Origin: Candidatus Altiarchaeota archaeon
GTDB taxonomy: Archaea; Altiarchaeota; Altiarchaeia; IMC4; SCGC-AAA252-I15
Assembly (NCBI GenBank): GCA_043800705.1
Contig: JAZDMS010000039.1
Coordinates: 1 to 24,115, forward strand
Reading direction: 5' to 3'
DNA: 24,115 nucleotides
The notes beneath the pieces were generated by a model. That model had not been told where the DNA came from, did not search any database, and worked only from the letters and a program-made list of their open reading frames with translations. Position 1 is the first letter of the stretch. Each line of letters opens with the position of its first letter. A program made the position numbers and the translations under genes. Below, piece after piece: positions 2,305-19,072 of the stretch.

Positions 2305-2354
2305 TAACAGGATACTCCAGGCTTTTTAAGGGACGTGGCGTATTATAGTCTATC

Positions 2355-2459
2355 ATGAAGAAGCCCTCTTTTATCTATCAGACGGTATCGTTCGGCGAGG
2401 AGTACTTCAGCAATAACCCTATACTGCGTCTCTACTTGTTCTTGCGGCTGCGGGCTTAG
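2355..2459 (+). CDS. Putative leader peptide (34 aa) with a Leu-rich C-terminus, upstream of leuA
   Basis: MKKPSFIYQTVSFGEEYFSNNPILRLYLFLRLRA. TATA-like TTTTTAAG at 2323-2330 lies about 25 nt before the ATG. Confidence 0.5.
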   Translation: MKKPSFIYQTVSFGEEYFSNNPILRLYLFLRLRA

Positions 2460-2547
2460 ATTCCGCCCGTCTCTAAGGCCCGTCTTAGGCATTCTAATTG
2501 GTTTTATTTTCCAAGGTTGCGATTTATTTAAGAGGTATGGATGTGAC

Positions 2548-4071
2548 ATGGAACAGTTTACATATGACAGGCAGGTGAAGCCGAAGACCGTGCCGAAGAG
2601 GATAAGCATATTCGACACGACGCTGAGGGACGGGGAGCAGACCCCGGGCGTCAACTACAGCATAGACGACAAGAGGCGGATAGCGGAGGCCCTGAGCAGG
2701 ATGGGCGTCAAGTACGTCGAGGCCGGTTTTCCGGTATCCAGCGACGGGGCGTTCCAGGCCGTGAAGGAGGTCGCCGGGATGGGACTGAAGTGCGAGGTCG
2801 TCGGACTGGCCAGGTGCATGGAGAAGGACATCGACGCGGCGGCCGATGCGGGAGTGGACATGGTCCACATCTTCATCGGGACTTCCCCTATGCATAGGGA
2901 GTATAAGCTGGAGATGACGAAGGCCCAGGTGCTGAGGAAGGCGCAGGAGAGCATCCAGTATGCGAAGGACCGCGGGTGCAGGGTGCATTTCAGCCCCGAG
3001 GATGCGTGCAGGACCGAGATCGAATTCCTGAAGGAGGTCTGCGCGATGGCGGATGGCATGGGCGTGGAGCACATCAACATCCCCGACACCGTCGGAGTCA
3101 TGACCCCGCAGGCCATCGCCTGGCTGATCGCCGAGCTGAGGAAAGGCGTGAATATACCTTTCGCGGTGCACTGCCACAACGACTTCGGGCAGGCGACCGC
3201 CAACACCATCAGCGCCATTACGGCGGGAGCCACGATTCCGCATGTGACGGTGAACGGCACAGGCGAGAGGGCTGGGAACACGTCCCTTGAGCAGGTCGTG
3301 ATGGGATGCAAGCTGATATACGGGATAGAGACCGGGATAAGGACGGAGAGTATCTGGGAGACATCGAGGCTGGTGGAGAGGCTGTCAGGGATAAAGGTTA
3401 TGCCGAACTTCCCGATCGTCGGAGGAAACGCATTCGCCCACGAGAGCGGCATCCACGTCCACGCCATCCTGAAGAAGGCCGCGACCTACGAGGCTATCAG
3501 GCCCGAGATGGTCGGCACTGAGAGGAAGATAGTGATAGGGAAGCTGATCGGCTCCGCAGGCGTGAAGGACAGGCTGAAGGCGATGGGAGTGAAGGTCTCG
3601 GACGAGCAGGCCCGCGAGATCACCGCGAAGGTGAAGGACCTCGGCGACAAGGGCAAGAAGGTGATGGAGGAGGACCTTCAGGCGATAGCGGAAGACATGG
3701 TCGGGAAGGGCTCGAGGAAGGAGAGATTCGTCGAGCTGAAGGATATGACCCTCCACGCCGAATACGGCGACAAGCCGACGGCGTCGGTCGCCCTGATAGT
3801 GAAAGGCAAGGAGAAATACGCAAGGGAGCATGGAGTCGGCCCGGTCGACGCGACCCTGAACGCCATAAGGGCCGCAGTCGGCGACAAGGACATACAACTG
3901 GACGAGTTCCACCTGGATGCGATCACCGGAGGCTCCAATGCCCTTGCAGACGTCAGCATCCGAGTCAGCAAGAATGGCAGGAGCGTGATGGCCAGAGGAG
4001 TACATGAGGATGTCGTAATGGCCTCGGTGATAGCCTTCATCAACGGAGTCAACCGGATAATGCGCAAATAG
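2548..4071 (+). CDS. leuA: 2-isopropylmalate synthase / citramalate synthase family (LeuA/CimA) with C-terminal regulatory domain
   Basis: Motifs DTTLRDGEQTPG, EAGFP, HCHNDFG, NGTGERAGN, AHESGIH and GVGPVDA. LeuA versus CimA cannot be settled by eye. Confidence 0.9.
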   Translation: MEQFTYDRQVKPKTVPKRISIFDTTLRDGEQTPGVNYSIDDKRRIAEALSRMGVKYVEAGFPVSSDGAFQAVKEVAGMGLKCEVVGLARCMEKDIDAAADAGVDMVHIFIGTSPMHREYKLEMTKAQVLRKAQESIQYAKDRGCRVHFSPEDACRTEIEFLKEVCAMADGMGVEHINIPDTVGVMTPQAIAWLIAELRKGVNIPFAVHCHNDFGQATANTISAITAGATIPHVTVNGTGERAGNTSLEQVVMGCKLIYGIETGIRTESIWETSRLVERLSGIKVMPNFPIVGGNAFAHESGIHVHAILKKAATYEAIRPEMVGTERKIVIGKLIGSAGVKDRLKAMGVKVSDEQAREITAKVKDLGDKGKKVMEEDLQAIAEDMVGKGSRKERFVELKDMTLHAEYGDKPTASVALIVKGKEKYAREHGVGPVDATLNAIRAAVGDKDIQLDEFHLDAITGGSNALADVSIRVSKNGRSVMARGVHEDVVMASVIAFINGVNRIMRK

Positions 4072-4202
4072 AGGCATAAGTATAATCCGGCAGAGGAGCC
4101 GACAGGCTCCTCCTTCGCCAGCCTTAGTAAGGCTGGTACATGAGGATGTCGTAATGGCCTCGGTGATAGCCTTCATCAACGGAGTCAACCGGATAATGCG
4201 CA
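4000..4202 (+). repeat. Exact 67-bp direct repeat of the leuA 3' region (4000-4066 = 4136-4202) flanking a two-hairpin insert
   Basis: gtacatgaggatgtc...ggataatgcgca occurs twice. Hairpins at 4093-4112 and 4118-4136. Confidence 0.97.
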
Positions 4203-4245: not shown

Positions 4246-4270
4246 GGGGCGGTTTTATTTTTCCCGCCCC
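4246..4270 (+). terminator. Stem-loop with T-rich loop followed by a long T-rich tract; probable leuA terminator
   Basis: ggggcgg-ttttattttt-c-ccgcccc, then T runs to about 4370. Confidence 0.55.
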
Positions 4271-4375
4271 CGTCATTTTCCGGGGCGGTTTATGTTTTTT
4301 GTGATTTTTAGGTTTTGCCGGCGGTTTTTCCCGTTTTTTTCGTTTTTATTTTCGGTTTCGTATCTATTTTCTAGC

Positions 4376-5854
4376 ATGAAATCGAAGGTTTCGGGTTTGC
4401 TGGTTTTTTTGTTTTTGGCGTCTTCTGTCTCGGCCTGGAGCGACGCAGTCGACAGGCAGCTATGCAATGACGTGGCCACTATCGTCTGGGGCCCTTCGGT
4501 GGCGAACAGCTGCCTAGGCTCCTTCGACACAGGCGCCCAGGAGGGCGTCTGTTCCCTGTACGGGGACAGGAAATCCGACTGCGAATCCTTGGCTGTCGAC
4601 TCTCCAGCCGTCATCCCAAACCAGCTCGGGGAGGGGCAGCTCGAGCAGGCAGGAGACTGCCCGATAACCAGGACGCCCGAGAACGGCTACCTCTGCGCGA
4701 AAAAGACCGATGCGATCGAGGCCGCCAGGGAATGGACCGCCGCGGCCGGGACTGCGGCCAACCAGTGCGAGAGGATCGGCAGGTTCTGTGTCGCAGCCAA
4801 TTACATGGCTCAGGCATATGACCCGTTCTCGTCGGTCATCAACTTCGACAGGACCTGCCAGGACGTCTCCAACCGCAGGATCGACTTTGGGGTCGTCAAC
4901 AACCAGACAAACTGGGGCACCAACGTTGTCTGCAACTTCGACTATTTCATCGGCCTCGCAGGGGGGCAGATAGCGAAGAACTACAGCCAGAACGTCCAGG
5001 TCACAAGCAGGATGATCAACACGATAAAGAGCAATTTGACGGCCGAGGCGCGCCTATTGAAGAACAAGCCGTACCCGAGGCAGCCGACCACAACCACTAC
5101 GCTTCCCGGCCAGAATGCCAGCGCGGACCCGACGCTGTATTGCATGACCGACGAGGACTGCATGGTCACGCAGTCAGGGTGCTGCGACTGCAACCAGGGA
5201 GGCTCCAATGCAGCGATTGGCGTTAAGTTCAATGCAGAGTGGGTTAAGACCCTCGAGCAAAGGTGTAGGAACATCTCATGCATACAGGCGATATCCAACG
5301 ACGTCTCATGCAAGTCGACGGCGGTCTGCGAAGGCCACGTCTGCTCCTTGAAGGCCGTCGTGCCCACGACGACAACGACCGCGACAACAACTTCATCGAC
5401 GACAACGACGTCGTCCACGACGTCCACCACCGTGACGACGACCACGCTTCCTGCGGCGACCACGACGACGCTGAAGGAGGGGACGTCCGCAATGAGTCTC
5501 GCACTATATGCGATCGTTTTCCTTGTTGTCGTTGCCGGGGCGTATTTCCTGGCTGCGCCGCTGATAAAAGGATCCGATGACGGCTCAGACGACAGGGAAT
5601 CAAGGGGCGGACTGAGGGGTTTCGGAGGCAGGGACGGCAAGATAGAATCCTACGGGGCCTCGAGGCTCGGCGACGCCGACAGGTCCGCGAAGCCGAAACA
5701 TATGATCCCGATGAAGGATAGGAAGGAGAAGCCGAAGGAACAATATAACGAGCCCCAGAGAAGGGAGGAATCCGAGAAGCCCGCAGGCAAGGGCAGGGTG
5801 AGGAGCCTCTTCCATGAGCCGAAGGGGGACGACACCACCCTCGGAAAGAGATAA
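4376..5854 (+). CDS. Membrane-anchored cell-surface protein (492 aa): Cys-rich helical N-domain, 8-Cys module, Thr-rich stalk, TM, charged cytoplasmic tail
   Basis: ATG 4376 begins signal peptide MKSKVSGLLVFLFLASSVSA. Contains CMTDEDC..GCCDC..C..C..C..C, TTTT runs and TM LALYAIVFLVVVAGAYFLA. Confidence 0.85.
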   Translation: MKSKVSGLLVFLFLASSVSAWSDAVDRQLCNDVATIVWGPSVANSCLGSFDTGAQEGVCSLYGDRKSDCESLAVDSPAVIPNQLGEGQLEQAGDCPITRTPENGYLCAKKTDAIEAAREWTAAAGTAANQCERIGRFCVAANYMAQAYDPFSSVINFDRTCQDVSNRRIDFGVVNNQTNWGTNVVCNFDYFIGLAGGQIAKNYSQNVQVTSRMINTIKSNLTAEARLLKNKPYPRQPTTTTTLPGQNASADPTLYCMTDEDCMVTQSGCCDCNQGGSNAAIGVKFNAEWVKTLEQRCRNISCIQAISNDVSCKSTAVCEGHVCSLKAVVPTTTTTATTTSSTTTTSSTTSTTVTTTTLPAATTTTLKEGTSAMSLALYAIVFLVVVAGAYFLAAPLIKGSDDGSDDRESRGGLRGFGGRDGKIESYGASRLGDADRSAKPKHMIPMKDRKEKPKEQYNEPQRREESEKPAGKGRVRSLFHEPKGDDTTLGKR

Positions 5855-18586: not shown

Positions 18587-19072
18587 TTACCATCTTCCAA
18601 TCCCCTTGAATCCCCCATGCTGTGGGCCTTTGCCTGCGCATCCTTTGTGGGTTGTCCAGTTTCCTTCGGTTCTCATGTTCTGCATCGCGCCCCTGACATC
18701 GTCGTCTGATGCGTCGACGGCAAGCCCCAGGCGCGTCCTTAATTGTTTGCCCTGCTCTGCCTGCATGGACTGACCCTTCGCTTTTACAGCCAGCCGGTAT
18801 TCCCTTAAGGTTGAATCCTCTGTGAGTCCAAGGTCTTTCAGATGCCTTTGCCAAAGCGCTTCCTGCACCTCTTCCCGGGTGGCGTTGTCAGGAAGGCCCA
18901 TGTCCTCAAGGAACGATAAGTTCCCGAAGACGGCCTGTCTGCCGAATCCCCCCTTCATCCATGGTTTGCCCATGAGTCTCTGCCCGCCTTCGTATGCTGC
19001 CGCCGCTGCGACGAACACCCCAAACACCACCAGGGCGGCTGCCCCGGCGATGAATAATCTTTTCTTTTCCAT
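18587..19072 (-). CDS. Small secreted helical protein (161 aa) with three (L/M)GL-xxx-(A/S) repeats; Spy/CpxP/ZraP-like architecture
   Basis: RBS GAGGTGA, ATG 19072, signal peptide; MGLPDNATREEV / LGLTEDSTLREY / LGLAVDASDDDV; Gly/Met-rich termini. Confidence 0.75.
   Translation of the reverse strand: MEKKRLFIAGAAALVVFGVFVAAAAAYEGGQRLMGKPWMKGGFGRQAVFGNLSFLEDMGLPDNATREEVQEALWQRHLKDLGLTEDSTLREYRLAVKAKGQSMQAEQGKQLRTRLGLAVDASDDDVRGAMQNMRTEGNWTTHKGCAGKGPQHGGFKGIGRW

Follow-up and report, generated by a model that had tools for sequence, protein, structure and literature searches.

Leader-peptide attenuation is a textbook bacterial mechanism. Could a short, leucine-rich open reading frame (ORF) in front of an archaeal leuA gene serve a comparable purpose? 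We addressed this question in the window, a stretch of 24,115 nucleotides (nt) that is contig C33 of a Candidatus Altiarchaeota genome (G000; 2.0 Mb, 43 contigs, 87.6% complete) and has archaeal gene content, such as a PF01949 endonuclease and an archaeal-type PheRS alpha chain. Here, a 293-nt gap between a small lipoprotein-like ORF (2042–2254) and leuA houses an upstream ORF (uORF) of 34 codons together with its promoter and two RNA helices, termed P1 and P2 (Table 1). From the comparisons described below, the element is probably a cis-acting leader in which the ribosome gauges leucine on behalf of leuA.

A leucine-rich uORF precedes leuA in Altiarchaeota

A first-pass annotation, made from the letters of the window alone, had described a W-rich box, an ATG at leaderless spacing from it and a 34-codon ORF with leucines crowded at its end. 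All of these are present, with the box at 2323–2329 and the ATG at 2355. The leader transcript should start at this ATG or within a few bases of it, and would then be leaderless. The ORF product (P0001) has no Pfam match and contains no Leu in codons 1–23; Leu then occupies codons 24, 26, 28, 30 and 32, interrupted by R, Y, F and R, before the TAG stop at 2457–2459. By itself this cluster is uncommon and not decisive, as at least five Leu within the last 11 codons are reached by 7 of 1094 intergenic ATG-initiated ORFs (20–60 codons) in this genome. It is conservation that lifts the leader far above chance.

Table 1. Features of the leuA leader region and of the related isoleucine leader (positions in the window unless another contig is named)
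Feature	Position	Strand	Remarks
TATA box TTTTTAA of the leader promoter	2323..2329	+	3′ end 25 nt before the uORF ATG; box column conserved in the alignment
Leader ORF, 34 codons (protein P0001), ending R-L-R-A, TAG stop	2355..2459	+	Translation, homologous ORFs, R1 match
P1 remnant	2362..2420	+	Arms 2362–2368 and 2414–2420; 3 of 7 positions pair in the window
Leu codon cluster, presumed sensing site	2424..2450	+	CTG, CTC, TTG, TTG, CTG at every second codon
Helix P2	2450..2483	+	5′ arm 2451–2460 with stop codon 2457–2459; 3′ arm 2472–2482
AU-rich spacer	2484..2531	+	T4-A-T4 at 2502–2510; TTTATTTAA at 2523–2531
leuA Shine–Dalgarno motif GAGGT	2532..2536	+	11 nt before the ATG
leuA, predicted 2-isopropylmalate synthase, 507 residues	2548..4071	+	Pfam HMGL-like, HCS_D2 and LeuA_dimer
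Ile leader	G000 contig C1, about 18720–18870 (L070:9720–9867)	-	T8 tract after the hairpin

A protein search for LeuA in 41 genomes (G000 and 40 relatives) yielded 30 loci, and the upstream DNA was read for 29 of them; with L024 (52 nt upstream) and L016 (11 nt) lacking upstream DNA, 27 loci were informative. At 18 of these, the window included, leuA is preceded by an ORF of 30–40 codons that ends in a Leu run, R-L-R-(A/E/V) and a stop. The expectation of the first-pass annotation that a leaderless Leu-rich uORF would recur before leuA in related archaea was thus borne out: in all 18 leaders the W-rich TATA-like box ends 23–28 nt before the uORF ATG, and in none is there a Shine–Dalgarno (SD)-like motif before that ATG. 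The uORFs of L015 and L018 are doubtful, and both loci are excluded from all counts on 18 leaders. Among the 27 informative loci, no such uORF was present at seven loci of family f5 and one of family f7. In f5, leuA directly follows a ribosomal protein S8e-like gene at the 7 loci examined, the S8e assignment coming from reading the translation rather than from a search.

We then condensed the element into a covariance model, R1, built from eight relatives with the window left out. R1 matches the window at 2355–2503 with 60.7 bits (E about 1e-14). It matched 19 distinct sequences among 35 sources, 12 of which gave no match. Genome-wide, exactly one match per genome was obtained in 17 of the 49 genomes of the order and in 17 of the 61 genomes of the phylum, and all 17 matches lie, by coordinates, on the leuA strand and at most about 130 nt 5′ of a leuA ortholog. 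Five f1 genomes gave no R1 match: the ortholog itself was undetected in G009, G012, G016 and G019, and lies at a contig end in G008. Two f3 genomes carry diverged leaders with weak R1 matches in a smaller search. Furthermore, a pattern scan of metagenome contigs returned 22 stretches, of which 7 match R1 and 6 are full-length, two of the latter being identical. These full-length loci follow the same plan and add four further distinct members; leuA follows the leader in five of the six, L111 being the locus where it was not located.

Chance formation of the ORF in an ordinary intergenic region is an explanation to which we give practically no weight. The seven small ORFs with an equal Leu count and the missing P1 of the window copy would be compatible with it. 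It does not account for a 60.7-bit match to a model that had never seen the window, nor for the position, promoter spacing, P2 and R-L-R ending that relatives have in common. As far as computation goes, the comparative data refute it.

One member of the family is unusual in its gene rather than its leader. The LeuA encoded at L028 (genome G014) is just 56% identical to that of the window and resembles the leaderless f5 type, yet it stands behind a typical f1-type leader; replacement of the gene behind a retained leader is possible.

The run is constant in amino acid and variable in codon

When codons are numbered upstream from the stop, Leu occupies positions −5 to −9 in 18, 17, 17, 16 and 18 of the 18 leaders, respectively, and each of these positions is filled by 4–6 different codons. 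The codons of the run always have U at codon position 2 and change only at positions 1 and 3, and positions −1 to −4 are conserved at the nucleotide level. The stop codon itself varies (TAG in 14, TAA in 3 and TGA in 1). In all 18 leaders and the four distinct metagenome members, the frame is open from the TATA-spaced ATG to the stop in P2. Pooled over the runs, codon usage is TTG 0.33, CTG 0.31, CTT 0.19, TTA 0.10, CTA 0.05 and CTC 0.02; among the Leu codons of the adjoining leuA genes, CTC makes up 0.20 and TTG 0.12. CTC is thus nearly missing from the runs, as if an anti-SD-like sequence were avoided.

Between the uORF stop and the leuA ATG lie 63–106 nt in 15 of the leaders and about 175 nt in the other 3, and the GC content of this spacer ranges from 0.23 to 0.55. 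These distances fall in all three phases, and we therefore rejected frameshifting or read-through from the uORF into leuA. Between P2 and leuA, L004 and L032 carry ∼100 extra nt with strong hairpins, and L004 has no SD-like motif before leuA.

Covarying helices P1 and P2

P2 pairs the end of the uORF, including its stop codon, with the sequence just behind it. In the window, all 11 model pairs are present and P2 is the local minimum-free-energy fold, at −17.5 kcal/mol. The model-guided alignment was fitted to R1 and leans to its structure; a plain MAFFT alignment evaluated with RNAalifold therefore served as an independent check for P2. On the 18 leaders, this alignment gave P2 as 13 pairs, 8 of them with compensatory changes. 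Pair counting found 98.9–99.1% of cells paired in the two P2 helices. In the model-guided alignment, 94.3% of cells were paired compared with 83.5% in shuffles, none of the 500 shuffles reached the observed values, and 13 of 18 pairs had changed on both sides; sliding the partners by 1–3 columns lowered pairing to 20–58%. Of the structure alignments, one used 14 of the 18 leaders and one used eight.

P1 joins codons about 3–5 of the uORF to the codons just before the Leu run, and begins about 7–10 nt from the presumed 5′ end of the RNA. In the model-guided alignment it pairs at 6–7 of its 7 positions in 14 of 23 rows, and 6 of its 7 pairs have changed on both sides across the family. P1 is present in most single-sequence folds and in the RNAalifold consensus of eight sequences, and is missing from the minimum-free-energy fold of the window. 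Duplex folding with overlapping windows was uninformative for P1. We also asked whether the run is kept single-stranded, which proved not to be distinctive (predicted unpaired probability 0.47 in the run and 0.42 in the rest of the uORF).

Both helices are well supported, and the best-conserved peptide positions outside the run, encoded by the G-S codons close to the start and the G-N-P codons ahead of the run, are the arms of P1 and need no peptide function. This is what one would expect of an untranslated structured RNA, such as a protein- or ligand-binding leader, with the reading frame and the Leu codons as by-products. We nevertheless regard this explanation as very improbable. It leaves unexplained why the nucleotides of the run vary and its amino acid stays constant, with 4–6 codons per position, and why the frame is open in every leader and metagenome member. 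Nor did the RNA resemble a known family: no Rfam family reached its gathering score on the window, and a search of 2255–2560 at E up to 10 returned only one chance-level match of 13.5 bits to an unrelated small RNA (sRNA) family. With ARAGORN, neither a tRNA nor a tmRNA was detected in the window.

An isoleucine-rich counterpart before a cimA-like paralog

G000 encodes a cimA-like paralog of leuA on contig C1. Upstream of it lies another leaderless ORF, of 17 codons, that ends in Ile codons and has its stop in the loop of a small hairpin. An Ile-type uORF was found in 13 of the 20 relatives examined, or at 14 of 21 loci with that of G000. Thirteen Ile loci were analysed by script, with L059 left out (the wrong ORF was picked). 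Ile is present at position −3 in 13 of 13 and at position −4 in 12 of 13, the TATA box ends 21–31 nt before the uORF ATG, and 3 of the 4 hairpin pairs show compensatory changes. Unlike the Leu leader, 11 of the 13 Ile leaders carry a T5–T8 tract, located 31–50 nt before the ATG of the gene; for 6 of the 13, tracts of that length arise in fewer than 5% of shuffles. In L070, L052 and L053 the T tract lies in the loop of a hairpin with a stem of 6–8 bp, attained by 0–3.5% of shuffles (3 of 11 loci; L050 and L067 were left out of this loop-stem test).

A gauge of charged tRNA would be expected to have Leu codons ahead of leuA and Ile codons ahead of the cimA-like gene. Neither is predicted by a purely structural RNA or by a free-standing small gene. 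Scanning the whole genome for other leaders with a loose run filter gave noise only; a strict filter left 18 candidates, and the downstream gene was Pfam-checked for 7 of the 17 that do not precede leuA, none of these genes being an amino-acid gene.

A proposed mechanism and its output

Based on these features, we propose the following order of events. Transcription would start at or next to the ATG at 2355, driven by the TATA box, and the leaderless uORF would be translated. If charged tRNA-Leu is scarce, the ribosome would stall within 2424–2450, a few codons before P2, and P2 would stay folded; if leucine is plentiful, it would reach the stop inside the 5′ arm of P2 and melt the helix. The folding state of P2, along with ribosome occupancy of the run, would then set the expression of leuA, from its SD motif and the ATG at 2548, on what we infer to be one and the same RNA. 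Once formed, P1 would presumably hinder new loading on the leaderless AUG, so that the uORF would undergo a single, co-transcriptional round of translation.

For the step that connects the ribosome to leuA, the first-pass annotation had proposed the anatomy of a classical bacterial-type transcription attenuator, with exclusive hairpins at the stop deciding termination at the T tract 2502–2510. The pairings it named (2451–2460 with 2472–2482, or 2450–2455 with 2465–2470 plus 2473–2477 with 2484–2488) do exist in the window, as do the T4-A-T4 tract and the TTTATTTAA element at 2523–2531. Moreover, the alternative set (−14.7 kcal/mol) is only 2.8 kcal/mol less stable than P2, a small hairpin is predicted with the T4-A-T4 in its loop, and the Ile leader of the paralog does carry T5–T8 tracts. 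The family does not follow this pattern. In a suboptimal-fold comparison that took in 13 of the 18 leaders (the window and 12 relatives), 35 of the 196 window folds within 3 kcal/mol left the stop unpaired, compared with none in any of the 12 relatives. Across all 18 leuA leaders, the longest T runs behind the uORF measure 2–5 nt, a length that 10–98% of shuffles reach, and the sole T5 is part of the P2 loop; no conserved alternative helix downstream of P2 was predicted by RNAalifold. A terminator scan of 2200–2700 likewise detected no intrinsic terminator between the uORF and leuA, its sole site being a terminator-like hairpin with a T-rich tail at 2267–2282, after the small ORF 2042–2254. 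Excerpts of a 2025 commentary (PMC13681488) state that intrinsic termination in archaea rests on oligo-T tracts. The two-state switch and the terminator thus appear to be features of the window sequence and not of the family, and we consider a classical attenuator rather improbable. What stands of the earlier proposal is its kind, translation-coupled control of leuA, for which the Leu run, the covarying helix around the stop codon and the Ile counterpart argue; its anatomy does not stand.

Alternatively, the uORF and leuA could be two separate units: an independent small gene or sRNA, and a leuA gene driven by its own promoter in the spacer, without control in cis. W-rich boxes do end 21–30 nt before the leuA ATG, as a leaderless promoter would have it, in 12 of the 18 leaders, and in a comparison of the 18 leaders plus metagenome members, the close pair L010/L011 has a spacer as conserved as its promoter (0.96 and 0.98; a second close pair was unusable). 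In the window, however, no box lies at 21–30 nt, the two present ending 37 and 16 nt ahead of the ATG. The second of them is the TTTATTTAA element, at which the first-pass annotation had considered that leuA transcription might start; this is geometrically unlikely because the box ends 16 nt before the leuA ATG, compared with 23–28 nt for the uORF promoter. An SD-like motif is kept before leuA in 13 of the 18 leaders, and a TATA box 21–30 nt upstream would place the RNA start at or past it. In G000, 73 of 422 operon-internal genes have such a motif in front of them, as do 40 of 545 first genes, which makes it about 2.3 times commoner internally, so the SD motif before leuA mildly favours a bicistronic uORF–leuA RNA. 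Furthermore, an independent gene without a Pfam match would not be expected to occur once per genome and only before leuA, and a free-standing gene does not explain Leu before leuA and Ile before the cimA-like paralog. We therefore judge two separate units to be unlikely.

Returning to a cis-acting leader, the output could take several forms. The largest part of the probability that we assign to the leader falls, tentatively, on a co-transcriptional event in the AU-rich spacer, either premature termination or factor-dependent cleavage. A smaller part goes to masking of the leuA ribosome-binding site (RBS) by the freed 3′ arm of P2, and the remainder to RNA stability or some other step. The factor-dependent version is conceivable because, in the same commentary excerpts, termination in archaea depends on oligo-T or proceeds through FttA, which prefers U-rich nascent RNA and probably needs transcription to be uncoupled from translation. 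With P2 folded in the wake of the polymerase, a ribosome waiting at the U-rich hungry codons might keep FttA/aCPSF1 or a nuclease off the RNA; a ribosome at the stop inside P2 would leave the RNA exposed, and leuA transcription would be cut short. The uORF would be translated only once, during transcription, as P1 would afterwards close the 5′ end. Taken as a whole, this terminator-free, ribosome-read attenuation is a bolder and doubtful proposition; with the Ile leader as its twin, it would be an ancient and widespread form of archaeal amino-acid control.

We assessed masking of the RBS by folding all 18 leaders with ribosome-covered segments excluded, a check that the first-pass annotation had suggested. 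No common change in SD accessibility emerged: the mean unpaired probability of the SD motif was 0.31 for free RNA, 0.32 and 0.24 with the ribosome stalled at the first and the last Leu of the run, and 0.25 with the ribosome at the stop. Large drops were restricted to three leaders: L010 and L011, with the ribosome at the last Leu of the run or at the stop, and L026, chiefly with it at the last Leu. When the Leu run, the P2 3′ arm and the 5′ portion of the uORF were each tested for duplexes with the RBS, a trend was seen only for the P2 3′ arm, whose complementarity exceeded that of shuffles (z < −1.5) in 5 leaders out of 18, the window (z +0.87) not being among them. For the Leu run, complementarity to the leuA RBS falls short of that in shuffles (mean z +0.57).

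Several of these results weigh against a leucine-gauging leader: the short T runs, the missing alternative helix, the inconsistent SD accessibility, the sparse complementarity to the RBS and the W-rich boxes before leuA. So do some others. The spread of the element is patchy, with no R1 match in 22 f5 genomes, and by eye no Leu or Ile uORF was found in the 330 nt upstream of the orthologs and paralogs of five sampled f8/f9 genomes. Within G000, ilvB, hisG and trpE lack such a leader. The sole metatranscriptome run, at 85% likeness, covers conserved parts of leuA, mostly less than 90% alike, and nothing at 2200–2534; its contigs are leuA of other organisms and are evidence neither for nor against the leader. 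Finally, the window copy is the most eroded seen in the genus, with 3 of 7 P1 pairs and five Leu interrupted by residues such as Y and F. It may work more weakly than the copies of relatives, because P1 is lost and the Leu run interrupted. An interrupted run also occurs in one metagenome member, L096.

Relation to known leader systems

Enterobacteria control several biosynthetic operons by transcription attenuators with leader peptides, among them leuL of the leu operon, trpL, hisL, pheL and ilvL, and the leu leader is represented in Rfam as Leu_leader (RF00512). As in the leuL type, the Altiarchaeota leader places a short ORF with a cluster of end-product codons before a biosynthetic gene, and its helices are positioned such that the location of the ribosome could decide which of them can form. 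Unlike the leuL type, it has an archaeal promoter and a leaderless ORF, its regulatory codons lie between two helices rather than within the first, and its stop codon is paired inside P2. Neither a conserved terminator hairpin with a U tract nor an antiterminator is found in the Altiarchaeota leaders, and the window leader has no match to RF00512.

The tna operon of E. coli couples the TnaC leader to Rho-dependent termination, with TnaC stalling at its stop on free tryptophan. By analogy, a ribosome near the end of the Altiarchaeota uORF could shield the nascent RNA from a termination factor, and in both cases the spacer between leader stop and gene holds no intrinsic terminator. The differences are that stalling would here take place at hungry Leu codons, and that the factor would be the archaeal FttA/aCPSF1.

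The closest published design appears, by analogy, to be that of the leaderless polycysteine short ORFs of mycobacteria, which excerpts of Canestrari et al. (bioRxiv 10.1101/834739) describe as translational attenuators. Going by these excerpts, the mycobacterial ORFs are leaderless first cistrons, which the geometry of our leaders would fit, and a run of the relevant codons is present in both. Ribosome stalling as the signal and several loci responding to one amino acid would likewise be common to both. In the mycobacterial excerpts, stalled ribosomes block a duplex that sequesters the RBS; no such duplex is conserved in our leaders, where instead a conserved helix holds the stop codon, and the two belong to different domains of life.

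Our search of the full-text literature, with subscription journals outside its coverage, found no archaeal amino-acid leader peptide or ribosome-mediated attenuator. The consulted portions of a 2014 Thermococcus transcriptome paper (PMC4247193) note no direct in vivo support for archaeal attenuators or riboswitches, those of a Haloferax study (PMC10117724) remark only in passing that some small ORFs in 5′ untranslated regions are reminiscent of leader peptides, and those of PMC13158618 mention attenuation by citing bacterial work. If our reading is correct, the leader family extends a bacterial principle to Altiarchaeota with different wiring. The Leu and Ile leader pair would imply that ribosomes sense tRNA charging in a lineage whose transcription is eukaryote-like and whose mRNAs are leaderless. 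A design without bacterial terminator logic would also make signalling from translation to transcription or RNA decay directly testable in archaea.

Identity of leuA and features of the surrounding DNA

The gene downstream of the leader probably encodes a 2-isopropylmalate synthase. Its product scores 634 bits against NCBIfam NF002085, the 2-isopropylmalate synthase subfamily (cut-off 517), its nearest solved chain is the isopropylmalate synthase 3rmj, and in alignments with orthologs from close relatives the start at 2548 coincides with their residue 1. The cimA-like paralog is 44% identical to it and, with 602 bits, also lies above the NF002085 cut-off. It matches 3rmj with 230 bits, compared with 286 bits for the LeuA of the window, and at the threshold used only the paralog reached the Leptospira citramalate synthase 3ble. 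The amino acid encoded in the leader could provide a cheap functional label to tell isopropylmalate from citramalate synthase paralogs in uncultured archaea.

The long ORFs on either side, 772–2067 (431 residues) and 4292–5854 (520 residues), have no Pfam or NCBIfam match. After leuA, T tracts lie within the loops of GC-rich hairpins at 4246–4270 and 4282–4298 and not behind hairpins. We tried a T tract in a hairpin loop as a general gene-end feature and rejected it, as stems of at least 4 bp were found at 17 of 98 gene ends compared with 15 of 98 with shuffled flanks. Just past its stop, leuA has its 3′ end duplicated in a perfect 67-nt direct repeat (4000–4066 and 4136–4202), the downstream copy of which is also recognizable as an 85% protein match to LeuA residues 480–506. 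With two small hairpins between its copies, this repeat could be the scar of an insertion or integration, or an assembly artefact.

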